A stretch of DNA of 64,000 nucleotides from Mycobacteriales bacterium (GCA_041743105.1 JBGTNI010000050.1:16529-80528); one strand, 5' to 3'. Shown: positions 5,051 through 55,314, counted from the first letter of the stretch. Program-made: numbers and translations. Notes: generated by a model from the sequence alone, not told the origin.

Positions 5051-5051
5051 A

Positions 5052-11135: not shown

Positions 11136-11153
11136 GCAGGCCCTGAGATCGGA

Positions 11154-14700: not shown

Positions 14701-15681
14701 CGCCGGGATCTCTAGCCGGGCCACGGTGGATGGCAGCGGCCGCAACGATGAGGACGTGCCGGTGAGGAAAATCCTCCCGCCGGCGCCGGCGGCGAGTCCT
14801 ACCTCGTCGAGTCCGCCCTTAGCGAAGGAGCGAGTACCGGTATGGTCCACCCGGCGGACCCGGGCGGCGTCTCCTGCGTGGTCCATAAACCACACGCCTC
14901 CCGCTGCGTCGGGTCGCAGCGCGAATGGCGTCCCACTCGAACGCGCCAGCGGCTGCATCGAGCCGTCGGATTGCACGCGGATCACTCTGGAACCACTGGC
15001 CGCTACGATTCCCTTGGCGTCTGGGACCGCGGAGGTGACCTGTCCGGCCACCTTCACCGGTGTGGAGAGAGCCGCGGTGGCGGTGTCCACCCGTGCCAGC
15101 CTCGTCGCGCCGAGATCCTCGTCGCCAGCCTGGGTCAGGATGGCCTGTTCACCGACGCCGCAGCCGGGGTTGTAGTACGCCAAGCTGGACTGAATAGGTA
15201 GCTTGAGCACTGCCCCGCTGCGCAGATCTACGATGGCGGTGAAACCGCCCCGCAAGAACAACTCAGCCTTATTGGTGAAGGTGCGCGGCGCATACACCAC
15301 GACCAGCTTGTTGCCGGAACCAGTCACGCAGGCGTTGCCGATCCACAGGTCAGTCTCCAACCCCGGCTCCGACAGCGTCGCCGCGGTACGCCACGTGTAG
15401 CCGTTTTTTGCCTCGGCCACCAGCACATGCAAACCGTCCGCGTCACCCGTCGTCGTCCACGTCAGATCCTGGGATTGACGCCACTCCCGAGGGAGTACGG
15501 CATCACGCTGTCCCGCTTCAACGGTGGCCGGATCCCTGCTGTCAGCCGCCGGAACACTGGGGGTAGACGATGCCTGAGGTCCTGGGAGTAGCTGGTCTTT
15601 GGCTACCGACGCGCCAGCTGGTGGTGATATCAACGCTATCGACACGGCACATACCGTGAATATTTCCCGAACTCGAAACAT
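11734..15681 (-). CDS. giant secreted multidomain protein B: N-domain, SLT-like lytic transglycosylase, golvesin-like module, C-terminal SGNH/GDSL hydrolase
   Basis: ATG at 15681 preceded by GGGGGAG. Signal peptide MFRVREIFTVCAVSIALISPPAGASVA. Motifs TAQES (about 14170-14193), GYGVTQVT and WAYNSG (about 13798-13812). SGNH blocks GDSFAAGEG (about 12667-12705), ACSGA, GGND and YHPNEIG. Length 1315 aa. Confidence 0.85.
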   Translation of the reverse strand: MFRVREIFTVCAVSIALISPPAGASVAKDQLLPGPQASSTPSVPAADSRDPATVEAGQRDAVLPREWRQSQDLTWTTTGDADGLHVLVAEAKNGYTWRTAATLSEPGLETDLWIGNACVTGSGNKLVVVYAPRTFTNKAELFLRGGFTAIVDLRSGAVLKLPIQSSLAYYNPGCGVGEQAILTQAGDEDLGATRLARVDTATAALSTPVKVAGQVTSAVPDAKGIVAASGSRVIRVQSDGSMQPLARSSGTPFALRPDAAGGVWFMDHAGDAARVRRVDHTGTRSFAKGGLDEVGLAAGAGGRIFLTGTSSSLRPLPSTVARLEIPADSSVSTTGQIAVLRTESESVTSARMLSTSPNNAQPVRISTRVVSTGKDLAFTVHPSQRQSEQSQTGRELSPNLDTRASAAPTAAGDPGDPVDTDRSCSVPRGDVRTQVHQPTPHQVEWAVDMLAQGRMDLNRPANWKGSGLPAYAPLEMFPLVPLAGGGRIPAQVLLGITAQESNMWQASRHTVEGLAGNPLIGNYYGIPFRVSGKESEWDVDWKDADCGYGVTQVTDGMRLAGREKPDEKPRPPLHQRAIAVDYAANLAAGAQILAEKWNEQAAYGMKVHEGDPSKLENWFMAVWAYNSGFHPRQKAGEPWGLGWMNNPANAPYPINRRPFLHGRPSDASHPEDWSYPEKVMGWAAHSIGKTTGKNGAGFQPAWWRNTDQQLSVKPPNTLFCVKAANDCDQTQKFVPDDPSVLPTKPGQKPEPASHCGHINPATGKYDLKCWWHDVAWWKDDCEVNCGNEKIRFDAGVHPNPPDVPVHNLNCQTEDLPSNVLIVDNVSADVPAVASAPCPRRSDGSFRLDFERDAKTGDFLSKVDFHQIAGGFGGHFWFSHTRDGEIGQRLRVNGEWRLNRELHGWARVMVHMPNHGAHTQQARYTVHTADGAKHRTLLQRTEENRWVPLGAFRFSGVPAVDLTSITGGKPDGTEDIAFDAIAFQPLPGKPQHQIVTIGDSFAAGEGASPASGGKYYPESDRMGLTNYQNACHRSYAAWSRKARLPGSQHTVGYRTDIWDPTIDYHLLACSGAQTHNLLPSPRPGEEPIRNAFGRTAEGKFREPPQLDKGFLDADTTLVPMTIGGNDAEFTDVLTDCFVRFSCQEHHDLLVRERILNRVVPSIRTALEQVAKAAPNAKIVVMGYVKIFTASCDQTSQPDQTAFFHPESSEAEWMGRMAVFLNDQIAALIKDLQASPKIDVHFADPIASFEGKSVCGDPEAVNAGVLKITQGEGEKGGFPGFNPVISQQSYHPNEIGTSILGDVLSARLPQIGYGRSG

Positions 15682-15746
15682 GATCTCCCCCACTCCTAGC
15701 CATTCTGGTAGCGGACACTTATTCCTTGGTTGTCGTTAGGCCCGGC

Positions 15747-15886
15747 TCAGTAGTCCCATTGCGTAGTGTTCGGTAGGAGGTAAGGGTCCTCACATTGCTG
15801 CGCCCGTGCGTCATTAGCATGACTGGAGTCGGGCTATTTGCAAACATTTACCACTGTTGAAACCACCGGAGATACCGTTGCTGTTA
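15747..15886 (-). pseudogene. C-terminal fragment of a ricin-type lectin gene (second copy)
   Basis: About nine-tenths identical by eye at nucleotide level to 10998-11135. It ends ..QQCEDPYLLPNTTQWDY*. Confidence 0.5.
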
Positions 15887-15903
15887 CAGGCTCTGAGATC
15901 GGA

Positions 15904-16482
15904 TTAGAACCAGAGTTGATAGTTTTGTGGAACATGGCTGCACGGGTAGGTGCGGAGTCCGTGTTCGCTATCGTCTAGACACAGCCCGGTGTGTTGGTTT
16001 CTGAGTTCAATGTAAGAACCGAACGTGCGGATATACCAACTTTGGTAGGGAAGCGCGTTACAGTCCCACATGCGGAGTCCGTGTTCGCTATCGTCCAGGC
16101 AACTGTAGCCAATAAAACTCCGGTAGATCTTCAGTTCGACGGTGCCATCGCGCCACTTGTGGACGAACCACGTTTCAGTGCTGTTGTTGCCGCAAGGATC
16201 GTGCTTGCCAGGAAGTTCTGTGTAGGGCCTACTGCCTGGTTCGTAGCCAGCCAGACACCCCCCGGTGTGCCTATTCCGGAAGGCCTGAGCGTTGGAAGTG
16301 CTAGCGTCAATGGACGGGCCGTTGTCGGATACCGTCGTCAATTTACGACTGTCAGGTGATGCATGTGCCGACTCGATTGGGAGAACCAAGGCGGAAATTC
16401 CTACCATACAGGTGATGATAAGCCTTGAGAAGCGCCGAGTGAGCGGACGCCAGACCACGTGAATTTTTCTGCGAGCCAACAT
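15904..16482 (-). CDS. small secreted beta-trefoil (ricin-like) lectin-like protein
   Basis: ATG at 16482 preceded by GGAGGAG. Signal peptide ..ISALVLPIESAHA. Three repeats with (R)N.HTG.CLDDSEHGLR..C....Q.W, ending QNYQLWF*. Confidence 0.75.
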   Translation of the reverse strand: MLARRKIHVVWRPLTRRFSRLIITCMVGISALVLPIESAHASPDSRKLTTVSDNGPSIDASTSNAQAFRNRHTGGCLAGYEPGSRPYTELPGKHDPCGNNSTETWFVHKWRDGTVELKIYRSFIGYSCLDDSEHGLRMWDCNALPYQSWYIRTFGSYIELRNQHTGLCLDDSEHGLRTYPCSHVPQNYQLWF

Positions 16483-16554
16483 TATTCTCCTCCATCTCAA
16501 GAATCGATCAACACGCAAAATTAGACGAAACCAAGATGCTCCCATCTGAAATCA

Positions 16555-42626: not shown

Positions 42627-43265
42627 GTGAGCCTTATCCACCCGCGAGTAGCGGTATTGGACTACGGTTCTGGGAACCTTCGCTCGGCACAGCGAGCCTT
42701 ACAGCGCGTGGGCGCTGAGGTGACGATAACGAGCGACTTGGCTGCTTGTTCCGCCGCGGACGGGCTCGTGGTCCCGGGGGTAGGCGCGTTCGCCACCTGC
42801 GCTAGTGCGCTGCATACGACCGGCGCCGGGTCAATGATTGCTTCTCGGGTCGCCGCCGATGCCCCGGTATTTGGCATCTGTGTGGGGATGCAGGTGTTGT
42901 TCGACTCGGGTCATGAGCACGGAATCAGTGCGAAAGGCTTAGGTATCCTTCCCGGCGCGGTACGTCGGCTGCGCGCGGAGCGCTTGCCGCACATGGGATG
43001 GAATACCGTGCGGCCGGACGAGCCAAGCACGTTGTTCGCGGGGCTGGACGCGCAGACGCGCTGCTACTTTGTCCACTCTTATGCAGCATGCGACGATGAT
43101 GGTGCGCTGCGGGGTACCGCCGATTCAGTGACGTACACCGAACACGGTGAGCCGTTCGTGGCGGCGGTAGAGCGTGGCGCGGTTGCTGCGACGCAGTTCC
43201 ATCCGGAAAAGTCCGGGGAGACGGGCATGGCAGTGTTGCGGAACTGGGTCTCTAGCCTGGGGTAG
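42627..43265 (+). CDS. hisH: imidazole glycerol phosphate synthase, glutamine amidotransferase subunit
   Basis: 212 aa. VLDYGSGNLRS, GICVGMQ (catalytic Cys) and QFHPEKS. Confidence 0.9.
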   Translation: MSLIHPRVAVLDYGSGNLRSAQRALQRVGAEVTITSDLAACSAADGLVVPGVGAFATCASALHTTGAGSMIASRVAADAPVFGICVGMQVLFDSGHEHGISAKGLGILPGAVRRLRAERLPHMGWNTVRPDEPSTLFAGLDAQTRCYFVHSYAACDDDGALRGTADSVTYTEHGEPFVAAVERGAVAATQFHPEKSGETGMAVLRNWVSSLG

Positions 43266-43343
43266 CGCCCGGTTTGACACCTCTGAACCCTCAAATACGA
43301 GCTAAACTCAGGCCCCCTAACCAGTAGAATGTCGAGTTGAGCT

Positions 43344-44360
43344 TTGGCACCAGACACTGCCGACGGATCGACGGCCGCTCCCGGCAACCCGTGGAAGCGG
43401 ATCAGTGTTCCCGGGATCATGGTAAGTAGCATTCCAGCGTTCATTGCCATGGCGATTCTCCTCGCCTTCAGCAAGATTCCTGGCTTAGATACCTTGTCGG
43501 ACGTCTTCGAGGTTCTTATCGCCGGTTTACCGATCGTTATCGCGGCTATAGCTGCCCGCAAGGTATCTGGCGTGGATGAAGTCGGCGTGGTTGCCGGTGT
43601 AACCGCTGGTATTTTAGCCGTCGACGGCGGCATTCTTGGGGGTTTGATAGCCGGCATTCTGGCCGGGGTGCTGGCTAGCTATTTGCTGGCCTGGACTTTT
43701 GCCTGGCGTTTCCCAACCACTACAGCAAATATCGTGGCCGGCGGTGTCTCTGGTCTTATTCCCGGTCTTCTGGTCTACTACGTTCTCGCTCCGTTCACCA
43801 AAACCATCGGTGATGCCGTCAAGGTGGGCGTTGCTGAGCTACTTCAGTTCAATCCTCTCCTAGCCGGTGCCATGGCCGGAATCCTAATGTGGCCGGTTTT
43901 GATGGGAGGGGTTTATCACTCCGTCCTCCTCCCTATCATCCTGTTGGAGATGAGCGAGAAAGGCCATAGTTTTTTCGGGGCCATTGACATGGTTGCCCTG
44001 GTCATGGTCAGTCTAGGAATTACTTTGGCCAACGTTGTCGTTCCGCGAGCCAACAACGATCGCGTTCTTGCCGCCTCAGGTGCTGCGGTTAATTTCGGCT
44101 TCGGCACCTTCGTCGAAGCTTCCTACCCTTTTATGCTGGCCGATAAAAAAGTTTTCGCCGGTGCGTTAGTCGGTGGCGGGGTCGGCGGGCTGACTGTCGG
44201 AGCCACACACGCTGAGGCGACCGCGTATGTCCCGAGCGTTGTCGCACCGTTCCTCGCCACGAGCGCGTTCGGCATGTTCTTCGCCATGTTCGCTGCTTGT
44301 AGCGTCACTTTTGTGATCACACTGCTTACCAATATGTGGGCGTCGAGAGCCGCAGCGTGA
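43344..44360 (+). CDS. polytopic membrane permease, PTS EIIC-like (Fru/Mtl-type), with no EIIA or EIIB nearby
   Basis: 338 aa with about 9-10 TM segments. Gly-rich helices (GGILGGLIAGILAGVLASY) and a GGVYHSVLLPIILLEM segment resemble fructose/mannitol-family EIIC. Both the assignment and the TTG start are tentative. Confidence 0.45.
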   Translation: MAPDTADGSTAAPGNPWKRISVPGIMVSSIPAFIAMAILLAFSKIPGLDTLSDVFEVLIAGLPIVIAAIAARKVSGVDEVGVVAGVTAGILAVDGGILGGLIAGILAGVLASYLLAWTFAWRFPTTTANIVAGGVSGLIPGLLVYYVLAPFTKTIGDAVKVGVAELLQFNPLLAGAMAGILMWPVLMGGVYHSVLLPIILLEMSEKGHSFFGAIDMVALVMVSLGITLANVVVPRANNDRVLAASGAAVNFGFGTFVEASYPFMLADKKVFAGALVGGGVGGLTVGATHAEATAYVPSVVAPFLATSAFGMFFAMFAACSVTFVITLLTNMWASRAAA

Positions 44361-44405
44361 GTCACATCGTGGCACGCTTAACCTACTGTGGAGAAGTTAT
44401 GAGAA

Positions 44406-45002
44406 CTACAGCTTCCCTTTGGTGCTGGGCACGCCAATCACCCGGGAATCTGGTTCGACTGCGTCCCGCAGCGCCCGAGCCACTGCCTTGAACTGCGCCT
44501 CGGCGATGTGATGGGCGTCGCGACCGGAGCGCACCAACACATGTAACGCGATCTGAGCGTTGTTTGCAAAAGACTCCCAGACGTGGCGAACCAGTGTGCC
44601 CGCGAATTGCGGTCCGATCGTCGCAGTCTCCATCACGGCCGGCTCCTCGTGGACCAGATAGGTCCGGCCGGCCAGGTCCACTGACACCTGTACCAGCGCC
44701 TCGTCCAAGGGGACTAAGGAATCCCCAAAACGTCGGATGCCGGCCTTGTCTCCGAGAGCTTGCCGAAAGGTCTGACCGAGCGCGATCGCGCAGTCCTCGA
44801 CCGTGTGATGGGCATCGATATGCAAGTCGCCTTGGGCGTGAACAGTCAGATCGAAACAGCCATGTTTCCCGAGCTGCGCCAGCATGTGATCGTAGAAACC
44901 CACCCCAGTCTGGATATCGGTACGCCCCGCACCATCGAGGTCGATCTCCACCAGCACTTTGGTCTCGCCGGTCACCCGCTCCACTCTGCCGATGCGTCCC
45001 AT
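44406..45002 (-). CDS. hisB: imidazoleglycerol-phosphate dehydratase
   Basis: ATG at 45002. RIGRVERVTGETKV..DLDG, HHTVED and DAHHIAEAQFKA. The ORF extension to 45059 would overlap hisD. Confidence 0.9.
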   Translation of the reverse strand: MGRIGRVERVTGETKVLVEIDLDGAGRTDIQTGVGFYDHMLAQLGKHGCFDLTVHAQGDLHIDAHHTVEDCAIALGQTFRQALGDKAGIRRFGDSLVPLDEALVQVSVDLAGRTYLVHEEPAVMETATIGPQFAGTLVRHVWESFANNAQIALHVLVRSGRDAHHIAEAQFKAVARALRDAVEPDSRVIGVPSTKGKL

Positions 45003-45024
45003 CACCACTCCATACGTCGTCTCA

Positions 45025-46323
45025 CTAATCGGCAATCCGCACCCGTACCGCTGCGCCATGCGCTGGCAGATCCTCGGCCTCAGCCAATGTTATGACATGC
45101 CCGGCAACTCCGCTCAGTGCCGTCGCGTCGTACTCCACGACATGCGTGCCCCGCAGGAAGGTCTGTACCGAGAGTCCTGTGGAATACCGGGCGGACCCAC
45201 CAGTCGGAAGGATGTGGTTTGAGCCGGCGCAGTAGTCGCCGAGTGAGACAGGGGAGTAGTGCCCGATAAAGATCGCGCCGGCATTGCGTACCCGTGCGGC
45301 GACCTCTGGTGCGTCGCGAGTCTGTACCTCCAGATGCTCTGCGGCGTATTCATCCACTACCGCCAAGCCCTGCTCAATGTCGGTCACAAGCACTATCGCA
45401 GACTGCGGCCCGCTTAGCGCTTCCTGGACACGCTCGGTGTGCTTGGTTTTGGCGATCTGCCGCTCGAGCTCTGCCTCAACCGCCGCGATAAGCTCCGCAT
45501 CGGGCGTCACTAGAACGGACGCCGCGGCGGGGTCATGCTCTGCTTGGCTGATCAGGTCGGCGGCTAGGTAGACCGAGTTGGCGGTAGCGTCGGCAAGGAT
45601 CGCGATTTCGGTAGGTCCGGCCTCCGCGTCGATTCCTACCACGCCGCGTAGTAGCCGTTTCGCGGCGGTGACCCAGATGTTCCCCGGGCCGGTCACGAGG
45701 TCTACTGGGAGACACTCTTCCTCGCCGTCAGCGACCCCGTAAGCGAGCATCGCTATCGACTGCGCGCCACCGACGGAGTACACCTCCTCGACGCCGAGGA
45801 GCTCGCACGCCGCCAGCACCAGCGAATGCGGCAAACCCGTCTCGCGTTGCGGTGGAGAGACCACGGCGATCGATTCGACACCCGCGATTTGCGCTGGTAC
45901 CACGCTCATCACCACGCTGGACGGGTACACAGCCAATCCGCCTGGAACATAGAGACCCACCCGTCGTACTGGACGCCAGCGTTCGGTTACTCGACCACCA
46001 GCAACTACCTGGGTCGTGACATCCTCGCGACGCTGGTCGGCGTGGACCAGTCGTACACGTCGGATCGTTTCGGTCAGTGCCTCCCGGATTACCGGATCCA
46101 ACTGTTCCGCGGCCGCCCTGAGGGCCTCGCCTGGAACCCGCAATCGGGAAAGGGTCACATTGTCGAAGCGCTCCGTCGCGGCCCGCACCGCGGCAGCGCC
46201 GTCCTTGCGCACCGCCTCGATGATCGGCTGGACTTGCTCGGTTGCGTCCGAGACCTCCATCGCGGCACGTGGGAGGATGCTCCGAGGCGAGCGGGAGGAT
46301 TTTCGCAGATCGATACAACGCAT
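45025..46323 (-). CDS. hisD: histidinol dehydrogenase
   Basis: 432 aa. Motifs GLYVPGG, QAEHDP and [12 protein letters not shown]. Confidence 0.9.
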
Positions 46324-46502
46324 GGCGCTAGCCTAATGGACTGGTGGACCGGTCGCGCTGGCTCAGCCAGTGTTTAGAGGTCGCGTGTGAGATAGCCCGC
46401 ATTGTGTGCGGCACGGTAGCTCCCAGCCGCATTATCTCCCGTAATATCGATCGAATCTGGCATCGCCAACTTCTCGAACTTCTCCAGCCGTAGATAGGAC
46501 CC

Positions 46503-47588
46503 ATGACGTCAGTCCCGCCGCCGTTTGAGCGCGTTCAGAGGTTCATCGAGCTCGCCGAAGAGTTTGTCAGAGAGCAGGCCTTGGGCGTACTCAGCAAGGG
46601 ATATGCCGGTCTGGTCGCCTCGGTCCACGCTAATAAGCAGCTCCGCGAAATAGCACTACACGAAGGCATAGATGCTGTGCTCAAAAGCACAGACTCAGCA
46701 ATTGTCGAGCTGCGCAATAAGGCCAGAAGTGAGTTCGCTACTCCCGCCGAGCGGGGTGCTGAACAGGCAATGGGGGATCGGGTCTTGCAGACATTCCCCG
46801 ATGACGCTGTACTCGGGGAAGAGCTGGGTGCGCGGGGAAAGACGTCTCAGGACGGAGGCTCCGGCATCCGCTGGGTCTTCGACCCGGTAGATGGCACAAC
46901 CTCGATGTTGCGCACGGCTGTGGCGCAGGCGTACAGCATTGAGCTTCCCGATCCAGAGCCAGCTTTCGGGGTCACGATTGGGGTAGTCAGCGACGACAAA
47001 GCCGTTGCCGGAGTGGTGGCAGAACTCCGGCCCCGCCAGGATGATGGCCTGAAGGTTGATCGGCTGTGGGCAGGCGGTTCCGGTGTGCCGACCACCTGTA
47101 ACGGCACGTCGGTGATCGCGCGTCCGGCGGTCCCACTCGCCGAAGCCACCCTTACCTGTACCGCCCCTTGGGTGATGTTCGGCAAATCAGAGGAGCAGTG
47201 GGGGACCTTCCAGGCTTTGGAGGAGGCTGCTGCTCGCGTCATCACCGGGCAGAACTGTATCGGTTTCATGGAGCTGCTTGGCCGGGATGGTCGGTTTAAC
47301 ATCGCGTTTGAGCAAGATTTGACGCTACCCGATATCGCTGCTATCGGTCCGATTCTGCTCAACGCTGGGGTGGCAGTGACTGATATCCAGGGCAATCCGT
47401 TGCTGTTCGGTCCCGAACAGCAACGTCGCGGACACGAGTTCAGCGTGCTCGCCGCGCACCCAACGCTCTATAGGCAGGCGGCAGCACAGATACGATCCGG
47501 CCCGAATGGTCGATCCACCCGCGAAGCTTGGGGAAAGAAGGAGACTGGGGTAGATGTCAGGAAGTTCGATAAAGGCCCTGAGGTCTAA
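46503..47588 (+). CDS. inositol monophosphatase-family phosphatase; candidate histidinol-phosphatase
   Basis: 361 aa. IMPase motifs LGEELG and WVFDPVDGTTS, plus a degenerate C-terminal PDIAAIGPILLNAGV. Located between hisD and hisC. Longer than the roughly 260 aa I recall as typical for HisN. Confidence 0.65.
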   Translation: MTSVPPPFERVQRFIELAEEFVREQALGVLSKGYAGLVASVHANKQLREIALHEGIDAVLKSTDSAIVELRNKARSEFATPAERGAEQAMGDRVLQTFPDDAVLGEELGARGKTSQDGGSGIRWVFDPVDGTTSMLRTAVAQAYSIELPDPEPAFGVTIGVVSDDKAVAGVVAELRPRQDDGLKVDRLWAGGSGVPTTCNGTSVIARPAVPLAEATLTCTAPWVMFGKSEEQWGTFQALEEAAARVITGQNCIGFMELLGRDGRFNIAFEQDLTLPDIAAIGPILLNAGVAVTDIQGNPLLFGPEQQRRGHEFSVLAAHPTLYRQAAAQIRSGPNGRSTREAWGKKETGVDVRKFDKGPEV

Positions 47589-47618
47589 TCCGCCCCGTCA
47601 CAGATGAGGAGGTAACGC

Positions 47619-48725
47619 GTGGACATCCATGACGTCATCACCAGGCTGGCTCGTCCGCAGGTTCTGGCCCTGACGCCCTATAGCTCAGCCCGAAAGGAAG
47701 GCGAGCAGAACGAGGCGTGGGCGCATCACGACGCCAACGAGATGCTGTACCCGCCCTACCCGGACACCTCGGCGCAGGAGGGGCTCAATCGCTATCCCGA
47801 ACCGCAGCCGTCCCACCTGCTCGACATCTTCGCTCAGTACTTTGACGTGCCCCGAGAACAGCTGTTGCTTTCTCGCGGCGCGGACGAGGCGATCGACCTT
47901 CTCACGCGAGTCTTCTGCCGGGAAGGTGTCGACGCGGTGCTTATTCAACCGCCAACCTTTGCCATGTATGAGCACTCTGCGCATGTACAAGGCGCCGCCA
48001 TTCACGAAGTCCCGCTCCGTCCCGACAGTTTCCAGCTGGATGTACCCCGGATTCTTGACGCTTGTCGGAAGGACTCCAATATCAAGCTCGTTTTCATTTG
48101 CTCCCCGAACAACCCCACCGGGAACCTGATGCGACGAGAAGACGTGCTGGCGCTGAGCCGGCATCTGGCCGGTCAGGCAATGATTGTGGTCGACGAGACA
48201 TACGTGGCTTATTCCGGCCAACCGTCGCTTAGCGCCGAAATCGAGAAACATCCAAACGTGGTCGTGCTCCGTACAGTCTCGAAGGAGAACTCGCTTGCCG
48301 GAGAGCGATGCGGGGTCATGATCGCGCATCCAGAAATCATCAGTCTCACCGGCCGCATCCACGCGCCTTATCCACTAACCGCCTCCGCTATCCGCGCTGT
48401 TACAGAGGCCATGTCCGTCGAAGGTGTCGACTATGCCGGGCGGCTCCGCGAGCAGATCTTGCGCGATCGGGACGCGCTCGAACAGGCTTTAGCTACCTCA
48501 CCGGCTGTGCAGCGTATTTACCCTAGCGATGCCAACTTCCTGCTGCTGCAGACAGCTAACCCCAAGCTTCTAGTGCGGGTCATGGAGGAGAACCATATTA
48601 AAATCCGAGATCGCAGCGCGGTGGTGCCAGGGTGCGTGCGAATCTCTGTGGGCCGGCCAGAGCAGAACGAGCGACTGTTAGCTGTCTTTGCCGAATACGC
48701 CCGGCAGGCTACGCCAGCGCAATAA
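47619..48725 (+). CDS. hisC: histidinol-phosphate aminotransferase
   Basis: 368 aa. NPTGN, DETY and SKE.SLAGER (PLP lysine region), plus IRISVG. Confidence 0.85.
   Translation: MDIHDVITRLARPQVLALTPYSSARKEGEQNEAWAHHDANEMLYPPYPDTSAQEGLNRYPEPQPSHLLDIFAQYFDVPREQLLLSRGADEAIDLLTRVFCREGVDAVLIQPPTFAMYEHSAHVQGAAIHEVPLRPDSFQLDVPRILDACRKDSNIKLVFICSPNNPTGNLMRREDVLALSRHLAGQAMIVVDETYVAYSGQPSLSAEIEKHPNVVVLRTVSKENSLAGERCGVMIAHPEIISLTGRIHAPYPLTASAIRAVTEAMSVEGVDYAGRLREQILRDRDALEQALATSPAVQRIYPSDANFLLLQTANPKLLVRVMEENHIKIRDRSAVVPGCVRISVGRPEQNERLLAVFAEYARQATPAQ
48623..48720. repeat. 98-bp direct repeat copy 1 (authentic 3' end of hisC)
   Basis: 94 of 98 nt identical to 52753-52850 in the same orientation, by my hand alignment. 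Confidence 0.85.
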
Positions 48726-48798
48726 CCGTTCCTACCAGCCCATGTGGTGATGTGTTGAATTCTGTACGTTCATGTGAATTCAGGGTAGGATTCCGTGC

Positions 48799-49104
48799 AT
48801 GTTGACGGTAAATTTGACGGACGCCCGAGCTCGACTTTCAGACCTGGCCGATGAGGTGACCGGTACCCATGAGCATGTGACAATCACCCGTAACGGGGTG
48901 CCGGCGATGGTGCTGTTATCGGCCGACGAGTATGAAGGTCTCGTGGAGACTTTGGAGATTATGCGTGATCCGCAGGCTGTGGCGGATCTTCATCAAGCTC
49001 AAGCCGAGTATGAACGTGGCGAGGCGTATACGCTTGATGATCTTAATCGAATGATGGCGCAACGTCGTGCTCGCGAAGACTACGACCGGAAACACGCCGC
49101 GTGA
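48799..49104 (+). CDS. Phd/YefM family antitoxin
   Basis: 101 aa. VNLTDARARLSDLADEV..HVTITRNGVPAMVLLSADEYEGLVETLEI. Confidence 0.8.
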   Translation: MLTVNLTDARARLSDLADEVTGTHEHVTITRNGVPAMVLLSADEYEGLVETLEIMRDPQAVADLHQAQAEYERGEAYTLDDLNRMMAQRRAREDYDRKHAA

Positions 49105-49400
49105 ACCCACAGCACCAGCCGTTGTGGGAGGTGTGCATTCTGCCTACGGCGCTTCGTAAGCTTCAAATCGGTCCCCCAACTGGTCTGCCCTCGGCGGCGG
49201 CATTCGCTGCCTTGGAGCTCATTAATGGACCACTGAGCCGGAATCCTCACCAGGTTGGGAAGTCACTGCATGGGGGGCTCGCCGGCAAACGCGCCGCTAG
49301 GCGCGGTGATTACCATGTCATCTACCTCATTGACAACGACAAACACCTTGTCACCGTCTTTGACGTTGGGCACCGCGGTCACGTCTACCGCCGGAACTAG
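49101..49400 (+). CDS. RelE/ParE family toxin
   Basis: 99 aa. 4-nt overlap with the antitoxin. ..RRGDYHVIYLIDNDKHLVTVFDVGHRGHVYR. Confidence 0.75.
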   Translation: MNPQHQPLWEVCILPTALRKLQIGPPTGLPSAAAFAALELINGPLSRNPHQVGKSLHGGLAGKRAARRGDYHVIYLIDNDKHLVTVFDVGHRGHVYRRN

Positions 49401-49500
49401 ATTTCTACACCAGCAACGGGTTGGCATGGCCCATTTGGTTGATCCATCGCTTCGATAATCATGTCGTCAACATCGCCAAACGACAGCCGGATGTAGTCTT
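49398..49500 (-). pseudogene. C-terminal end of a class I/II aminotransferase gene, split by the transposon
   Basis: Reads (E)DYIRLSFGDVDDMIIEAMDQ..* on the minus strand. The continuation ..LLYEAKVITIPGNGFG.. lies at 52623-52745, on the other side of the element and in a different frame. Confidence 0.45.
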
Positions 49501-49544
49501 GGGATCCCCGTAGTACTCGCCGAAAATCGGGCGGATATGGCTGA
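49501..49544. repeat. terminal inverted repeat, left
   Basis: 42 of 44 nt match the reverse complement of 52579-52622. Confidence 0.85.
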
Positions 49545-49608
49545 CCGGGAGTTTCGCTAGCCAGGTTGCGGCTGAGCGTCGGTCTCGGCGGCCGCCACCT
49601 CGCCGTGC

Positions 49609-49744
49609 ACGACCGCTCGGCGACCTTGAGCTTGCCGCTGACCTTCTCCTCGAACACCTTAACGCAGATCGGGTCGAGGTCGTCGTGCTTGCGTTGGGTC
49701 TCCTGCTTGCTCGAGCTGACCCGCACGAGCCCGACGAGCGCCAT
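49609..49744 (-). pseudogene. tnpR: serine recombinase / resolvase N-terminal fragment
   Basis: MALVGLVRVSSSKQETQRKHDDLDPICVKVFEEKVSGKLKVAER matches the resolvase catalytic N-terminus (the VRVS-S-Q pattern), but similarity ends after about 45 aa. Confidence 0.6.
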
Positions 49745-50134
49745 CCCGGCCTCCCAATCGTCCGGAAAACGTGTTCGAAAACCGGTTGCAGCTCTACCTG
49801 CAAACGAACGGATTTCCGAACGCGGCGCTTTGGCGAAACGCCAGGTCGCGTCGCGCCGATGCTCGTTCGTGTTCGTGTTCGGCGAACGATCGTTTGTTGA
49901 ACAGAAGAGCTGTCGGTGCCGACGGTCACGATCCTGCGTCACCGGCCGCGCCGGGCGCCCTGTCTTCGGCGACTACCGACAAATCCTGTTCTGATTCTCC
50001 CGGCATCCCTAATTCAGCGAAACCGCCGCCAACGTCTCGGGGAACGGATGTCCTACCGGGCGTTCCGGGCCGAGCTTCTGCTCGCCGCGGGCGTCACGCA
50101 CTTGACGTTGACACTGTGACAAGGTCTTCACTGG

Positions 50135-50830
50135 GTGCAGGAGGTGGTTCCCGTCAACTCGACACACAGGAATTCACAGGACACGCGCCTGCTCGACGCG
50201 TTGGGCGCCGGAAACTCGTCGACGCGGCTCCAGGCGGCTCTGGCGGTTGGCACGCACTCCGACCTCGGCCTTGTCGGTGCGCTGGTGGCACGGTGCGCGA
50301 TCGAGCCGGACTTCTTCGTGCGCGACATGCTCACCTGGGCGTTGACCCGCTTCCCGTCGGAGATCACGGTGCCCAGACTCCGTGCGGAGCTCCGTTCCGA
50401 GCGCGCTCAGGCCCGAAGCCAGGCGTTGCATACGCTGTCCAAGATCGGGGACGGAAATGCGTGGCCCGCGATCACGCGGTCGTTGCTGCACGACGCCGAC
50501 GACGAGGTCGCGCGAAGCGCATGGCGTGCTGCCGTCGTCCTCGTGCCCGCTGGGGAACTGAAAGGGCTGGCCGCGGAACTGGCCGCACAACTCGGTCGCG
50601 GCGACCGGAATGTGCAACTGAGTCTCAGCCGAGCACTCGTCGCACTCGGAGACGTGATCGAGCTAGCCCTGCAGACGGGACTGGCGAGTGACGACCCGAC
50701 GGTGCGTGCGCATGCCCGCGCCACGGAGCGGCTCCTACGCGACCCGGATGCCGATTTCGACCCAGCCGTCGAGGAGGCGAAACGGATCGTCGCGCTCGGC
50801 CCGCAACGGGTCGAGGGAACAGCGTGCTGA
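50135..50830 (+). CDS. HEAT-repeat protein
   Basis: 231 aa. Repeated helical units with ..D..VR..A..AL.. periodicity. GTG start. Overlaps the downstream MerR gene by 7 nt. Confidence 0.6.
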   Translation: MQEVVPVNSTHRNSQDTRLLDALGAGNSSTRLQAALAVGTHSDLGLVGALVARCAIEPDFFVRDMLTWALTRFPSEITVPRLRAELRSERAQARSQALHTLSKIGDGNAWPAITRSLLHDADDEVARSAWRAAVVLVPAGELKGLAAELAAQLGRGDRNVQLSLSRALVALGDVIELALQTGLASDDPTVRAHARATERLLRDPDADFDPAVEEAKRIVALGPQRVEGTAC

Positions 50831-51852
50831 TCGGCGAGGTGGCACGCCGCTCGGGGGTGAGTACCCGGATGCTCAGGCACTACGACTCCCTCGGGCTGGT
50901 GCGACCAACAGGCCGCACCGTGGGTGGCTACCGCGAGTACTCCGCCGAGGACATTCGCCGGATCTTCCACGTGGAAAGTCTGCGGTCCCTGGGATTGTCG
51001 CTGCGACAGATCGGACGCGCCCTGGAGGATCCCGCCTTCGCGCCGTCCGCAATGGTCGGCGACCTCATCCGACGGACCGAAGACCGACTGAAGCGGGAGC
51101 AGGAGCTACTCGAGCGACTCCGTACGGTCGATGCCTCGGCGCCCTTCGCCTGGCAGGGCGTCCTGCGCATCGTCGAGCTCCTGCACGGGCTCAACTCGCC
51201 CAGTGCTGCGCGCCGACAGCAGACCGTCCTGGCCCCGGCCGAGGACGTGCCGGTTCCCACCGAGCTGCTGGCTGGGGCGATCCTCGCCGAATCCGATCCG
51301 AACGTTGCCGGCGCCCTGCGGTGGGCCCTCGCCCGGGCGGGCGGTGACGGTGTGGCGAGCGTGGCGTCCGGCGTGTATTCGGAGAACGTCGACATCCGGC
51401 GACGCGCGGTCCTGGCGATCGCCGAGATGTCCGGTGACGAGGCGAACGCGGTGCTCGCGGACGCACTCGGGGACCCGGACACGACGGTGCGCAGACATGC
51501 TGCTCTGGCATTGGGCACGCGTGGCGCGACCGCAGCCATGCCGACACTCGTCGGCATGGTGGTCGAGGGCACGAACGACGTCGAGGCGGCCGAGGTCCTG
51601 GGAACATTGTCACTGGACCCCGAGTGCGCGGACCGGATCATGAGTGCACTGGTCGACGAGCTCGCCGCACACACTGCGGACTCCGCGGTGCGGATACGCC
51701 TGACCCAGGCACTCGCCGAGATGCCGGCGACCATCGCGCTGAGCGTCCTGCAACAATTGGTCCACGACGATGATCGGGCTGTCGCCCTCATCGCCTCGGC
51801 CCTCGTGGGGGTGCTCGAAGAGAGTGGTCCAACGGTTGAGCCCGAGGCGTGA
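50824..51852 (+). CDS. MerR-family transcriptional regulator with C-terminal HEAT repeats
   Basis: 342 aa. MerR HTH IGEVARRSGVSTRMLRHYDSLGLVRP....GGYREYSAEDIRRI. C-terminal repeats DPNVAGALRWAL, ENVDIRRRAVLAI and DPDTTVRRHAALAL. Confidence 0.8.
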   Translation: MLIGEVARRSGVSTRMLRHYDSLGLVRPTGRTVGGYREYSAEDIRRIFHVESLRSLGLSLRQIGRALEDPAFAPSAMVGDLIRRTEDRLKREQELLERLRTVDASAPFAWQGVLRIVELLHGLNSPSAARRQQTVLAPAEDVPVPTELLAGAILAESDPNVAGALRWALARAGGDGVASVASGVYSENVDIRRRAVLAIAEMSGDEANAVLADALGDPDTTVRRHAALALGTRGATAAMPTLVGMVVEGTNDVEAAEVLGTLSLDPECADRIMSALVDELAAHTADSAVRIRLTQALAEMPATIALSVLQQLVHDDDRAVALIASALVGVLEESGPTVEPEA

Positions 51853-52028
51853 GCTGACCCGCCAGATCGAGCGGCAGCGCGAGTACGTGCGCGACACCGC
51901 CGCCTACGTCGACACCGAGGCCGTCTGGTCGATCGCGGCGACGATCGTGCTGCCGCCGGTGCTCGCGACCGCGATGGTGCGATCACTGTGACCAGGCCCG
52001 CCACGTCGGATCGAGCAACCGTGGGTGT

Positions 52029-52560
52029 TCAGAAGAGGGTGTCGCGCACGCGAAGCGGCCGGTAGCCGGTGGGGCCCGAGCTGGGCGAGTTCGCCTTCGA
52101 TGTCGACGTCGATGGAGCCGAAGAAGTTGATGTTCTCGCTGTGCGCTCGGGAAATGTGACCCAGGACCTCGTCGTCGAGGCACCGGCCGCGGCCCGCATC
52201 GAGCCCACGGCCAGGCCGTAGTACTCCGTCGTCCAGGCGGCCACGGCGTTGGTGACCAGAGTCAGGCACCACGCCTGTTCGGTCTGCTGTTCCAAGTGCC
52301 GCGCCCGGACGGTGCCCTCGTGGGCGTAGAGCAGGTCGCGTCTCAGCGCGTGCAGCGACTCGCCCTTGTTGAGCTGGCGGGAGATCCTGCGCCGGTAGGC
52401 GGGGTCGGCCAGGTAGCGGGCGGCGTCGATAGTGCGCCGTAACGCCCCGTACTCCTTGAGCGCGGCCGCGAGCGCGTTCTGCCGCCCCGAGGCGGACAGC
52501 TTGCCGACGAGCAGGGCCACCACCACTGGCGGTGCCGAGGACACCTTGTCCGGTACGAAT
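52029..52560 (-). pseudogene. tnpA: Tn3-family transposase C-terminal fragment with frameshifts
   Basis: ..RRISRQLNKGESLHALRRDLLYAHEGTV..EQQTEQAWCLTLVTNAVAAWTTEYY.. lies in one frame and ..HISRAHSENINFFGSIDVD.. in another. Roughly the N-terminal four-fifths of a full-length transposase is absent. Confidence 0.7.
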
Positions 52561-52578
52561 CCCAGCTCAGAAGCCTAC

Positions 52579-52622
52579 TCAGCCATATCCGCCCGATTTT
52601 CGGCGAGTACGACGGGGACCCC
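52579..52622. repeat. terminal inverted repeat, right
   Basis: Reverse complement is GGGGTCCCCGTCGTACTCGCCGAAAATCGGGCGGATATGGCTGA. Confidence 0.85.
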
Positions 52623-52745
52623 GTCTTCCTCAGTAGGCCGAACCCATTGCCCGGGATTGTGATCACCTTGGCTTCGTAGAGCAGGCGCAGTGTTGAGATA
52701 CAGCTTCTCCGAGCTCTGCACGACGGGCTGTTGTCCTTCGGCGGT
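52623..52745 (-). pseudogene. upstream part of the split aminotransferase remnant
   Basis: Reads ..STLRLLYEAKVITIPGNGFG.. on the minus strand and abuts the duplicated hisC 3' end. Confidence 0.4.
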
Positions 52746-52752
52746 GCCAGGG

Positions 52753-52850
52753 TGCGTGCGAATCTCTGTGGGCCGGCCAGAGCAGAACGAGCGACTGCTA
52801 GCTGTCTTTGCCGAATACGCCCGGCAGGTTGCTCCAGCGCCGGCAGGGTT
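52753..52850. repeat. 98-bp direct repeat copy 2 (orphan copy of the hisC 3' end)
   Basis: See 48623-48720. The four mismatches cluster near the 3' end. Confidence 0.85.
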
Positions 52851-52869
52851 GTCTGCCTAGGCCCTCGGA

Positions 52870-55314
52870 TTAGTCCAGCCGATCAGCGCGCCTGCCGGGC
52901 AGTTTGCTGGTCTGGCCGGGGTTAGCACTCGGGCGTCTGCCGCGAGCCAGCGGGGCGCAGCCAGCAGGTTGGCGCAGTTCCGGCGCAGGTGGTGCTGCTG
53001 GGATCGGCAGGGTGAGCGGCGAGCCGGTTTCGACGGTGATCTGTTTGCCGTGATGTGTGAGAAGCAGCGGGTCGCCGCTGAGCAGACGATAAGTCGCCTC
53101 CTGACCGGTTACCTCCACCGCGATCCGGCTGCCGCGAACGGCCATGCGGAACGCATAGCGGGACAACTGATCGGGCAGTCGTGGCGCGAAAGTGACGTCT
53201 CCACCTGTGTCCCGCATGCCACCGAAACCGGCTACCAGAGCCAGCCAGGCGCCGGCAAGCGCCGCGATGTGTACGCCGTTGCGCACATTGTCGTGCAGGT
53301 CGTGCAGGTCAGTGAGCGCGGTCTCTGCAAAGTAGTCGTAGGCTAACGCTAGGTCACCTACCTCCGATGCCATCACCGACTGGGTGCAAACCGACAGCGA
53401 CGAGTCCCGGACGGTACGCGCCTCGTAGTAGGCCATGTTGCGGGCCTTCTGTTCGGGTGTGAACGCGTCGCCACGTAGGTGCATTGCCAGCACAAGGTCG
53501 GCCTGCTTAATGACCTGCTTGCGGTACAGGTCGAAGTACGGGAAGTGCAACAGGAGCGGATATCGCTCAGGCGGTGTGCCCTCGAAGTTCCATTCGTCGT
53601 GCTCGGTAAAGCGTTCGGACTGTGGATGTACTCCGAGCACCTCATCGTAGGGCACCACCATCTTTTCGGCCGCCTTGTGCCACCGTGCGATCTCCGTGTT
53701 ATCCACATTTAGCCGTATCGCTATGTCGGGATGCCGCTGACACGCCGCGGCCGCGTCGAGCAGGTTCTGCTGCGCCATGAGGTTGGTGTAAACATTGTTG
53801 TCAACGATTGCGGTGTATTCGTCCGGACCGGTGACACCGTCTATGCGGAAGCCGCCATGTGGGTCGTGATGGCCCAGTGAGACCCACAACCGCGCGGTCT
53901 CGGTGAGCAGCTCCACGCCGTAGTCATGGTCAAATTCGGTATCGCCGGTAGCGGCCACATAGCGTGACACGGCGTTGGCGATGTCGGCACTGATATGGAA
54001 CGCCGCCGTCCCTGCCGGCCAGTACGCGGAGCATTCGTCGCCGTCGATGGTCCGCCATGGGAACAACGCGCCATTTTGGCCCAGGAGTTGAGCGCGCTCA
54101 CGAGCCTTGTCCAAGATGGAGTGTCGCCACTGCAATGCGTCTCGCGCGGCTTCGGGCATGGTGTAGGTCAGCACCGGGAGCACGAACGTCTCCTGGTCCC
54201 AGAAGGAGTGCCCGTCGTAGCCAGGACTGGTGAGTCCCTTCGCTGGAATAGGACGAGTCTCGCCACGTGCGCTGGCCTGCAGTACGTGGAACAGCGCGAA
54301 GCGGATCGCTTGTTGCAGCTCCTCGTCTCCATCGAGTTCGATGTCTGCCGAGTCCCAGAACTTGTCAAGGTAGGTTCGTTGCTCGGCGAGTAGTCCTTCC
54401 CAACCCGAGTGCATGGCGCCCGCCAGCGCGGCGTCCACCTGCGCCCGCAGCGCCGGTACCGAACGTTGACTGGACCATCCGTAGGCCAGGTACTTCGTGA
54501 GCTGAAGTTTGCCACCCTTGGGAACATCGGCGGCGACAGTAAGCCGCGCCAGGTCTCCTTCGGCGTGAACCGAGGTCCGCACTCCGTCCTCGGAGCGCAG
54601 CTCATGGTCCATCGCCGCCGCCATCCGTAAGCCCGATCGGGCTGTGTGGTGCACCAACACCGCCCAGTTGTCTTCGGCGGCGGCGAAGTCAGCCAACAGC
54701 GGTTGTTGTAGGTCGGCGCCCAACCGCGGGTCGATCAGCGTTAGGTTGGCGTTGCGGTCGCTGTCGATCGGTTCGTTCGCGAGTAGGTCCGACTGTGCAA
54801 CGAGCTGCAGCGGCTCATCCAGCGGCTGTACCTCGTAGCGAATTGCGGCGACCGCACGCTGAGTAAATGAGACCAGACGTTCGGTCGTGATGCGGACGCG
54901 GCGGCCGGTCGGTGACGTCCAGTCGGTGCTACGACGCAAGGTACCGCTGCGGAAGTCCAGCACTCGTTCATGAGCCGTGGTGGTGCCGTAGCGGAGATCG
55001 ACCGGCTCGTCGTCCACCAGTAGCCGGATAATTTTGCCGTCGGTGACGTTGACTGTCGTCTGACCGGCCTCGGGATAGCCGTAGCCACCTTCATCGTAGG
55101 GGATGGGCCGCGACTCGAAGAACCCGTTGAGGTAGGTCCCGGGCACCCCGCGGGGTTCGCCTTCCTCCAAGTTGCCCCGCATGCCCAAGTGGCCGTTGGA
55201 GAGCGCGAAGGTGGATTCAGTGCGCGCCAGCTCGTCGACATCGAGGCCCTGCCAGTGCAGCGCCCACGGAGCGACGCCGTAACCAGGCTTGGCGACACTT
55301 TGATGTTCGGTCAT
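52870..55314 (-). CDS. glycoside hydrolase family 65 phosphorylase (maltose/trehalose/kojibiose phosphorylase type)
   Basis: 814 aa. N-terminal ESTFALSNGHLGMRG, a catalytic (alpha/alpha)6 region (GLTSPGYDGHSFWDQETF) and a C-terminal beta domain. Confidence 0.9.
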   Translation of the reverse strand: MTEHQSVAKPGYGVAPWALHWQGLDVDELARTESTFALSNGHLGMRGNLEEGEPRGVPGTYLNGFFESRPIPYDEGGYGYPEAGQTTVNVTDGKIIRLLVDDEPVDLRYGTTTAHERVLDFRSGTLRRSTDWTSPTGRRVRITTERLVSFTQRAVAAIRYEVQPLDEPLQLVAQSDLLANEPIDSDRNANLTLIDPRLGADLQQPLLADFAAAEDNWAVLVHHTARSGLRMAAAMDHELRSEDGVRTSVHAEGDLARLTVAADVPKGGKLQLTKYLAYGWSSQRSVPALRAQVDAALAGAMHSGWEGLLAEQRTYLDKFWDSADIELDGDEELQQAIRFALFHVLQASARGETRPIPAKGLTSPGYDGHSFWDQETFVLPVLTYTMPEAARDALQWRHSILDKARERAQLLGQNGALFPWRTIDGDECSAYWPAGTAAFHISADIANAVSRYVAATGDTEFDHDYGVELLTETARLWVSLGHHDPHGGFRIDGVTGPDEYTAIVDNNVYTNLMAQQNLLDAAAACQRHPDIAIRLNVDNTEIARWHKAAEKMVVPYDEVLGVHPQSERFTEHDEWNFEGTPPERYPLLLHFPYFDLYRKQVIKQADLVLAMHLRGDAFTPEQKARNMAYYEARTVRDSSLSVCTQSVMASEVGDLALAYDYFAETALTDLHDLHDNVRNGVHIAALAGAWLALVAGFGGMRDTGGDVTFAPRLPDQLSRYAFRMAVRGSRIAVEVTGQEATYRLLSGDPLLLTHHGKQITVETGSPLTLPIPAAPPAPELRQPAGCAPLARGRRPSANPGQTSKLPGRRADRLD

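Follow-up and report, generated by a model that had tools for sequence, protein, structure and literature searches.

A duplicated hisC 3' end around a toxin-antitoxin insert in an uncultured Mycobacteriales genome: a possible scar of integrase-independent recombination

What kinds of event leave a copy of a gene's 3' end on either side of an insertion? In prophages, ICEs, IMEs and CIMEs, the 3' end of the target gene forms part of the direct repeats, with the copy on the insert side completing the gene and the original end displaced; CIMEs, decayed derivatives of integrative elements that retain attL and attR without integration genes, are a recognised class (PMC5704250). In experiments with E. 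coli plasmids and conjugation, single crossovers of circular molecules, as would be made by a RecA-type process, yielded duplications of the homologous segment of 109-950 bp, and classical homology-facilitated illegitimate recombination yielded an insertion plus a deletion (PMC3240628). Homologous joining on one side combined with illegitimate joining is likewise documented (PMC3240628, PMC5361080), and homology-facilitated illegitimate recombination is the process to which the displacement of effector-immunity modules at rhs, CDI and T6SS loci has been attributed (PMC5361080 and references therein).

The locus described here, which lies in a 64-kb stretch of DNA analysed as a whole (the window), resembles each of these systems in part. 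As in integrative elements, its repeats include the target 3' end and the insert-side copy completes the gene, and as in a CIME, integration genes are absent; unlike integrative elements, it had an original cargo of 891 bp, has no conserved ends, and carries a toxin-antitoxin (TA) pair that occurs at many unrelated sites. With a Campbell-type single crossover (PMC3240628) it has in common an insert bracketed by a duplicated homologous segment, of 102 bp in this case, no need of a site-specific recombinase, and one novel junction, as would come from circularisation; in contrast to the plasmid experiments, a circular intermediate, its donor and the proteins that recombined it all have to be postulated here. 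As at rhs, CDI and T6SS loci (PMC5361080), the module would have entered via conserved upstream coding homology, the resident 3' part is kept downstream as an orphan, and the site is a hotspot at which the downstream module changes from lineage to lineage, but the target is a housekeeping aminotransferase instead of a polymorphic toxin, the cargo is a predicted type II TA pair, and there is one displacement and no array.

The two copies of the hisC end

The neighbourhood belongs to the core chromosome (dnaE, his genes, cysK/cysE-like genes, hrpA), and its hisB/hisD and hisN-like/hisC synteny is common to the window and the related loci L001, L002 and L081. The hisC relatives are annotated as histidinol-phosphate transaminase. 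The features that define the duplication are the following.

47619-48725, plus strand: hisC, histidinol-phosphate aminotransferase, 368 aa, intact (Pfam Aminotran_1_2, E = 2.4e-49)
48619-48720, plus strand: repeat copy A, formed by codons 334-368 at the 3' end of the working hisC
52739-52860, plus strand: repeat copy B and its own tail, an orphaned, 5'-truncated hisC end reading ...AVPGCVRISVGRPEQNERLLAVFAEYARQVAPAPAGLSA and a stop
52870-55314, minus strand: glycoside phosphorylase/hydrolase gene of family GH65, oriented towards hisC (Pfam domains Glyco_hydro_65 N, m and C)

Both MAFFT and a repeat finder delimit one direct repeat, 48619-48720 against 52739-52840, of 102 nt and 95% identity, with five mismatches at 48622, 48678, 48709, 48711 and 48713 (ungapped comparison, offset 4120). 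The longest exact run between the copies is 55 nt, as against 15-16 nt in shuffled windows. The duplicated hisC end claimed in the initial annotation is thus real, and its 98-nt core at 48623-48720 has, in the ungapped comparison, the four mismatches given there. The second copy had been misplaced at 52753-52850: an offset of 4130 gives no match, and the true offset of 4120 sets the partner of the core at 52743-52840, so that the earlier coordinates were 10 nt too high.

Onward from the 102-nt repeat the two tails are unrelated in sequence. The working hisC closes with the short tail ...EYARQATPAQ-stop, and the coding remnant of copy B comprises 39 codons and a stop codon, separated by 9 nt from the stop of the convergent GH65 gene. 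An empty site in which hisC is followed by GH65 had been predicted, and it is obtained by joining hisC to copy B: the resulting hisC of 373 aa contains the orthologue-like motif RSAAVPG and ends at that same distance from GH65. The accompanying expectation, that inserted DNA with a hisC 3' end of its own lies between the working hisC and an orphaned end on the GH65 side, is borne out. The copies are 4,018 bp apart, of which 3,127 bp stem from a later transposon insertion; the insert before the transposon was 891 bp, made up of the TA pair and 209 bp with no detectable homologue.

Where the copies differ, B has the orthologue state at five of the five positions and A the odd one, so that measured against the orthologues A has five private changes and B none. 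As to the tails, the Q-stop of A groups with L089 and L096, and the long tail of B with L081 and L001/L002. A and B nevertheless have derived bases in common against all other lineages, from which it follows that they come from close relatives.

The toxin-antitoxin insert and its nested transposon

Between the two copies lie the following features.

48721-48798, plus strand: last codons of hisC (Q, stop), then a spacer of 73 bp that includes the conserved block TTGAATTCTGTAC, colinear with L089
48799-49104, plus strand: predicted Phd/YefM-family antitoxin gene, 101 aa (PF02604, E = 1.1e-19)
49101-49400, plus strand: predicted ParE/RelE-family toxin gene, 99 aa (PF05016, E = 2.2e-5), with a 4-nt overlap with the antitoxin gene
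49401-49500, no strand: first part of a 209-bp stretch of unknown origin, with a hairpin at 49418-49432, ending in GTCTT at 49496-49500
49501-52622, no strand: Tn3-family transposon, predicted to be defective, 3,122 bp, with 44-bp terminal inverted repeats and a GTCTT duplication
49501-49544 and 52579-52622: the terminal inverted repeats, 44 bp with 2 mismatches, the sole two copies in the window
49613-49824, minus strand: match to a plasmid resolvase (serine recombinase) gene, the frame keeping about the first 45 codons
50135-50830, plus strand: passenger gene, HEAT-repeat protein, 231 aa (PF13646)
50824-51852, plus strand: passenger gene for a 342-aa MerR-family regulator with fused HEAT repeats (PF13411, PF00376, PF13646)
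52029-52544, minus strand: C-terminal fragment of a Tn3-family transposase (PF01526 DDE_Tnp_Tn3, profile positions 255-367 of 389)
52623-52738, no strand: right GTCTT copy (52623-52627), then the remainder of the 209-bp stretch up to the novel joint with copy B

The Phd/RelE addiction module of the initial annotation is supported by both profiles (PF02604 with 70.4 bits against a cut-off of 29.8, PF05016 with 25.4 bits against a curated cut-off of 23), and a small antitoxin gene upstream of an overlapping toxin gene is the layout by which we predict a type II pair. The homologues of the antitoxin are of equal length and 69-91% identical, those of the 99-aa toxin adjoin the antitoxin at every locus, and the lengths of 101 and 99 aa are kept. 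The spacer at 48721-48798 is probably the promoter/operator region of the pair. Similarity to other copies begins at 48750 or at 48786, and homology among the copies stops at the TA genes, so conserved element ends are lacking. The pair occurs in at least six other contexts, free of integrases and of bracketing repeats, and is roving in nature; no repeats were found around the other TA copies or in the other hisC flanks, and no DNA match pointed to a plasmid source for the cassette. Its G+C content of about 56-60%, against 68-73% in the transposon (62-73% for 49501-52622), agrees with the uneven composition noted initially.

In the 209-bp stretch neither a homologue nor a domain was found in any frame, and the interval as a whole contains no recognisable RNA family. 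Promoter and terminator scans stayed at background level except at the hairpin after the toxin gene (49418-49432), which is terminator-like. An aminotransferase gene remnant had also been reported from the bracketed DNA. The candidate, a minus-strand ORF rejoined across the transposon (...YIRLSFGDVDDMIIEAM...), has no Pfam match at E up to 10, a best PDB match to an unrelated protein at E = 1.8, and no tblastn match among all loci, and an exhaustive HMMER search of 1.84 billion representative proteins returned only the contig's own ORF. We accordingly do not uphold this remnant; the sole aminotransferase fragment is copy B.

Members of the Tn3 family have terminal inverted repeats of about 38-48 bp beginning GGGG, a 5-bp target-site duplication, a DDE_Tnp_Tn3 transposase of about 1,000 aa and a resolvase. 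The nested transposon noticed at the outset has its place in this family: like elements on Mycobacteriales and Streptomyces plasmids, it has 44-bp repeats beginning GGGG (91-93% identical to inverted repeats on actinobacterial plasmids), a 5-bp duplication (GTCTT at 49496-49500 and 52623-52627), tnpA and resolvase fragments that are 81-85% identical, and passenger regulator genes. Unlike them, it lacks most of tnpR and about 2.3 kb of tnpA, a deletion deduced by comparison with NZ_CP109568.1; the tnpA fragment is a 171-aa ORF with 81-85% nucleotide identity to plasmid tnpA 3' ends, as compared with about 1,003 aa for the product of the complete plasmid gene, and neither transposase nor resolvase is intact. 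The resolvase stretch has no Pfam match but is 82% identical at the nucleotide level to 'recombinase family protein' genes of Nocardia and Streptomyces plasmids. Nucleotide identity is 74% to Nocardia farcinica over 50101-51803, and 82% to Streptomyces plasmid genes in the MerR/HEAT gene. Given the missing parts of tnpA and tnpR, the element would be incapable of autonomous movement, and judged by its sequence we take it for a defective Tn3-family derivative. We considered it as the cause of the hisC-end duplication and rejected it, as it has a 5-bp duplication of its own and lies wholly within the 209-bp flank. The TA insert came first and the transposon after it.

Could the arrangement have arisen in the computer, as a metagenome assembly chimera of two strain haplotypes? 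The source is a single NCBI contig of 118 kb that stands alone in its protein clusters, its close relatives are all MAGs, and the longest exact run between the copies, 55 nt, equals a common assembler k-mer size. A chimera at the repeat would nonetheless give one copy, not two with unique sequence on four sides, and the 52738/52739 junction must be present in real molecules. Moreover, the same 5 bp are duplicated on both transposon flanks, which chance would produce about once in 1,000 cases, and the window has no further copy of the inverted repeat. We thus hold a chimera to be highly improbable.

Relatives of the locus and proposed routes of entry

Relatives and the empty site were sought with hisC among genome contigs, with a codon-degenerate pattern of the repeat among viral and metagenome contigs, and in a database of 5.8 billion proteins. 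No hisC nearer than 85% identity was found in the genome contigs, the viral and metagenome contigs or the protein database, and the nearest relatives (85%, 83%, 80% over a partial sequence, and 71% identical) each have a different flank. Synteny in fact breaks at the hisC 3' end in all of the relatives, six different neighbours being seen downstream, and in no relative was GH65 found to adjoin hisC. The repeat pattern is absent from the viral contigs, and its one carrier among the metagenome contigs is an ordinary hisC. A same-species empty site or donor haplotype was sought and none was found, so that the route and the direction given below are proposals.

A second lineage, the metagenome contig L089, has a hisC-like tail and then, after about 71 bp of spacer, the same TA pair, with a phd gene of 86% identity and a stop codon in the same alignment column as that of the window hisC. 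The L089 contig is 538 bp long, so the upstream ORF is seen over 16 codons, at 60% DNA identity and below significant BLAST length; longer contigs of this lineage, sought via the toxin protein, were not found. With the upstream gene identified as hisC over these 16 codons, the incoming arrangement appears to occur elsewhere as ordinary contiguous DNA, and since the tail of A, the spacer and the TA pair are colinear with L089 from inside hisC, their junction was probably not made in this genome. The same colinearity speaks against a local origin in which the hisC end was duplicated in tandem, the copies diverged and the TA pair was inserted between them. Such an origin would explain two copies in direct orientation with 95% identity, but not the unrelated tails past the repeat, and the five derived states are all found in copy A, which is under selection, while the unconstrained B has none, the opposite of what post-duplication decay would give. 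It is very unlikely in our view.

An integrative element at the hisC 3' end, with a replacement copy of that end in its attP, is the reading under which the repeats would be attL and attR, and what is left would be a CIME-like remnant with the TA pair alone, the integrase and transfer genes having been lost later; excision in trans by a related integrase could then occur. A homology block that runs from within a gene to near its 3' end, followed by a replacement tail, is also how the attP of integrases targeting 3' ends looks, and integrase genes can be lost. The direct repeats of 102 nt and 95% identity do take in the target 3' end, the working copy has an alternative tail, copy B resembles the resident end, and the same left junction in L089 is as expected of an element family that uses the site; CIMEs, moreover, are an established class (PMC5704250). 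Against this stand the 891 bp of the insert, the lack of conserved element ends past the TA genes, the TA pair's other contexts without att-like repeats or integrases, and the distribution of the repeat pattern in viral and metagenome contigs. In addition, Pfam searches of all ORFs and of six frames of the non-transposon DNA detected neither an integrase nor a remnant of one, confirming the initial statement that the bracketed DNA has no intact integrase; none was present among the ORFs checked elsewhere in the 64 kb, tRNA genes are absent from the window, and no trace of a recombinase was seen apart from the resolvase fragment of the nested Tn3-like element. As a CIME has no integrase by definition, this absence rules out an autonomous element but is compatible with a CIME. 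Of the attL/attR proposal, then, the repeat, the resident-like copy B and the rebuilt hisC-GH65 site stand, while the site-specific origin gains no positive evidence.

On balance we favour an integrase-independent, homology-driven displacement of the hisC end, to which we give an even chance of being correct, over a decayed site-specific island, which is possible but rather unlikely. The route and the direction of transfer that we infer would start from two haplotypes of the hisC end and its downstream flank in very close relatives, one with a long-tail hisC directly before the convergent GH65 gene, the other with a short-tail hisC (...AQ-stop) and then the Phd/ParE pair. About 1 kb of the second, namely the TA pair with the last 100 bp or so of hisC before it and some 0.2 kb of flank after it, would have entered a genome of the first by recombination via the hisC homology, most simply through a single Campbell-type crossover of a circularised fragment, the circularisation of the 1-kb fragment being assumed, or alternatively through homologous recombination at one end and illegitimate joining at the other. 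Either route would duplicate the 102 bp, place the incoming tail on the working hisC and leave the resident end orphaned at GH65, and the transposon would later have inserted into the 209-bp flank with its 5-bp target duplication. Class I aminotransferases need a conserved C-terminal strand, and loss of a TA pair is penalised; on these general grounds the arrangement would persist because hisC depends on that strand (...CVRISVG...) and because shedding the pair is costly. The layout, with 102 nt of homology at one boundary and, at 52738/52739, a novel joint whose microhomology does not exceed 3 nt (CGG), fits homology-driven entry and also recombination between attP and attB, and the CGG says nothing for either route.

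The polarity of the exchange could also be reversed. In that case short-tail hisC, TA pair and flank would be the residents, and the GH65 side would have come from a close relative, with the homology anchor further to the right and the left end, in hisC, joined illegitimately downstream of the TA pair as an insertion plus deletion; recombinants through the hisC homology would lose the TA pair and may be counter-selected. The short-tail hisC end, which in L089 precedes the TA pair and which L096 has as well, may be native to the subclade, the joint at 52738/52739 is novel, with at most 3 nt of homology, and one-sided homologous plus illegitimate joining has precedent (PMC3240628, PMC5361080). 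On the other side, the GH65, beta-PGM-like and cysK-like genes do not stand out from the window in G+C or GC3 and hence bear no foreign mark, the five private changes in A and none in B fit both polarities and so lend no positive support, and GH65 lies beside hisC in no relative. We regard the reversed polarity as quite doubtful.

Implications

Homology-driven displacement, then, is the reading that we carry forward, and the locus has the look of an ordinary scar of recombination in the genome of an uncultured member of the Mycobacteriales, with nothing to show that it was formerly a self-integrating island. The event classes involved have all been described, so no new question is opened. It would be of greater importance if a site-specific element mobilised in trans were proven: the 0.9-kb unit would then be an integrase-less, CIME-like cassette targeting the hisC 3' end in uncultured Mycobacteriales, composed of a replacement end, Phd/ParE and a short right arm, moved in trans, with the TA pair as sole payload and as a stabiliser against deletion across the 102-bp repeat. 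This we consider improbable.

If our reading is true, the locus is a natural example of a small TA cassette entering a core chromosomal operon without a dedicated recombinase, riding on the end homology of an essential biosynthetic gene and leaving the old end orphaned. It would also single out the hisC 3' end as a hotspot of recombination in a clade of Mycobacteriales about which little is known: the six lineages each have a flank of their own, and three have TA pairs.

The hisC locus and its duplicated 3' end

In the window, the his genes are split over 42627-48725: the plus strand carries hisH, the minus strand hisB and hisD. hisC is divergent from hisD and hisB, and is preceded and partnered on the plus strand by a gene of the inositol-monophosphatase family that may encode a histidinol-phosphate phosphatase. 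The features downstream are as follows.

47619-48725, plus strand: hisC (Aminotran_1_2)
48619-48720: repeat copy A, hisC codons 334-368
48799-49104: Phd antitoxin gene (Pfam match at curated threshold)
49101-49400: ParE/RelE toxin gene (Pfam match at curated threshold)
49501-52622: Tn3-family element of 3,122 bp, with 44-bp terminal inverted repeats beginning GGGG
52739-52840: repeat copy B, an orphaned hisC end

Alignment yields one direct repeat of 102 nt at 95% identity, bearing out the 98-bp duplication of the hisC 3' end reported in the initial annotation. When compared without gaps at an offset of 4120, the copies differ at 48622, 48678, 48709, 48711 and 48713, so that the count of four within the 98-nt core was also correct. 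The second core, however, lies at 52743-52840 and not at 52753-52850, a 10-nt slip, since the offset of 4130 that those coordinates imply gives no match. The longest exact run common to the copies is 55 nt, compared with 15-16 nt in shuffled windows. After copy A, hisC has two further codons (Q, stop), and a 73-bp spacer separates it from the antitoxin gene. Copy B is in the hisC frame from about 52741, reads ...AVPGCVRISVGRPEQNERLLAVFAEYARQVAPAPAGLSA*, and has 9 nt between its stop and that of the convergent GH65 gene. If hisC is joined to copy B, the result is a 373-aa protein with an orthologue-like RSAAVPG motif, and this join would correspond to the empty site that the initial annotation predicted. 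No such site was found, because no same-species genome was; the closest hisC relative (L081) is 85% identical.

Where do the two copies come from? In an eight-way alignment they have derived bases in common against all other lineages, and both therefore derive from lineages that are very closely related. Where the copies differ, B agrees at all five sites with the nearest orthologues (L096, L081, L001, L002), whereas A stands apart, its base being present in L003 at one site and in L089, a short metagenome contig (ENA ERZ27251177, contig k141_500510), at one site. The stop position and final Q of A match L096 and L089, while the long tail of B resembles L081, L001 and L002. That the unconstrained B lacks private changes, while the selected A has five, speaks against duplication of the hisC end in situ followed by decay, which we regard as very improbable. 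The comparison instead argues for the joining of two pre-existing alleles. That the polarity is reversed, with the GH65 side as the incoming DNA, seems to us unlikely.

Elsewhere in the window, a unit of ~0.35-0.7 kb occurs three times in direct orientation at 74-94% identity (4758-5117, 10998-11597, 15747-16467). It adjoins two very large minus-strand ORFs with Golvesin_C domains (6094-10395 and 11734-15693, the latter also with a GDSL lipase domain) and a ricin-lectin ORF (15904-16545), and has the appearance of a family of tandem paralogous genes whose leader regions are conserved.

Contents of the bracketed interval

The addiction module proposed for the bracketed DNA is present, the Phd and ParE/RelE genes both scoring above curated Pfam thresholds. 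Upstream of the antitoxin gene, a 13-nt block, TTGAATTCTGTAC (48755-48767), is shared unchanged with L089, with a second GAATTC 14 nt downstream; the block may serve as the operator through which the pair is autoregulated.

The nested transposon was likewise confirmed by its inverted repeats and by a GTCTT duplication on both sides. Inside it are part of a resolvase gene, a HEAT-repeat gene, a MerR-HEAT gene and a Tn3-family transposase gene reduced to its last ~160 codons; tnpA is short of about 2.3 kb relative to a Nocardia plasmid copy, and a Mycobacterium plasmid relative has the full gene of about 1,003 codons. Its repeats, flanks, gene fragments and tnpA deficit make the element a defective Tn3-family transposon that was inserted later. 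Its passenger pair (50135-51852), a HEAT-repeat gene and then a gene that fuses HEAT repeats to a MerR-type DNA-binding domain, also occurs in Nocardia farcinica and on Streptomyces plasmids at 74-82% nucleotide identity.

With the transposon removed, the repeat copies are 891 bp apart, separated by the toxin-antitoxin (TA) pair with its spacer and 209 bp of unknown origin. The minus-strand ORF of this 209-bp stretch, rejoined across the transposon, superficially recalls an aminotransferase C-terminus. The stretch had no Pfam match in any frame at E up to 10, and the ORF gave no meaningful match in the PDB, none by tblastn against all fetched loci, and only its own contig's ORF call when 1.84 billion representatives were searched exhaustively with HMMER. 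The aminotransferase remnant described earlier is thus unsupported, copy B being the only aminotransferase fragment. No Rfam family matched in the interval.

The hisC 3' flank and the TA cassette in related genomes

The contig that holds the window is an NCBI record of 118 kb. Close hisC relatives are few; each comes from a MAG or metagenome contig, and most of these carry the label Mycobacteriales. Amino-acid identity is 85% for L081, 83% for L001 and L002, 80% for L096 (partial) and 71% for L003; the L089 comparison covers only its 16 visible codons. The syntenic arrangement of hisB and hisD on one strand, opposite the IMPase-like gene and hisC, is kept in L001, L002 and L081, but in none of them does homology extend beyond the hisC 3' end.

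Genes found 3' of hisC
Window and L089: Phd/ParE pair
L001, L002: another RelE/Phd pair and a Uma2-like gene (L001:11165-12336, L002:11163-12334)
L081: DUF222/HNH-type gene (L081:3533-5044)
L003: secreted proteins (L003:11011-12497)
L096: hisH, directly (L096:856-1488)

The hisC 3' end is thus a recurrent synteny breakpoint, with TA pairs there in three of six lineages. In L089, ...FEKYAHKVASAQ* precedes the pair at a distance of about 71 bp, an order colinear with ...FAEYARQATPAQ* and its 73-bp spacer in the window; the phd of L089 is 86% identical to that of the window, and the 16-codon tail fits the hisC tail consensus. This colinearity suggests that in a second lineage, too, the TA pair follows a short-tail hisC in ordinary contiguous DNA, as judged from those 16 codons.

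The Phd/ParE pair recurs, with the same gene lengths (101 aa and 99 aa) and 68-86% DNA identity, in at least six unrelated chromosomal settings in related genomes.

Other settings of the Phd/ParE pair
L083-L086, L093: after a ferredoxin gene, before a TetR gene (L083:6001-6602, L086:256-857); L083 and L001 belong to the same MAG
L082: between an alcohol dehydrogenase gene and a VapBC pair (L082:6001-6602)
L087, L088: between glpF and glpD (L087:6001-6602)
L094: adjoining rpoZ (L094:1698-2299)
L090, L091, L095: other places

DNA homology among the copies is limited to the stretch corresponding to window 48750/48786 through 49392/49402. None of the other copies examined has an integrase beside it or repeats bracketing it, and a DNA search found no plasmid carrying the cassette. 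In these settings it is a bare cassette, with no adjacent recombinase or flanking repeats.

Proposed displacement of the resident hisC end

A direct duplication around an insert has the topology that a circle produces on Campbell-type insertion, and such insertion can be achieved by an integrase (attP x attB) or, equally, by a homologous single crossover. Circular molecules recombining via short homology were found to produce just such duplications, of 109-950 bp, whereas classical homology-facilitated illegitimate recombination yielded insertion with deletion (PMC3240628). In T6SS and rhs loci, too, a module entering via upstream homology is proposed to displace a resident 3' part (PMC5361080).

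The initial annotation read the locus as a stranded integrative element. That reading is borne out in part: the locus does have a replacement 3' end, and its native-type end is displaced, but nothing shows an integrative element. The bracketed DNA has, as had been noted, no intact integrase, nor any remnant of one. The missing integrase, the tiny original insert, the want of conserved element ends, a roving TA pair, a flank that differs in every relative and the occurrence of the incoming haplotype elsewhere lead us to favour, at about an even chance, displacement of the resident hisC end driven by homology and independent of an integrase. A decayed integrative element at hisC, a CIME in the terms of PMC5704250, is retained as a distinctly weaker possibility, because anatomy alone cannot separate it from homologous displacement. 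Both appear likelier than reversed polarity, duplication in situ or an assembly chimera. The last is highly doubtful: the transposon's two flanks are linked by their matching 5-bp target duplication, and a chimera formed at a repeat would have left a single copy instead of two. Every component of this arrangement of hisC, TA pair and transposon belongs to a known kind.
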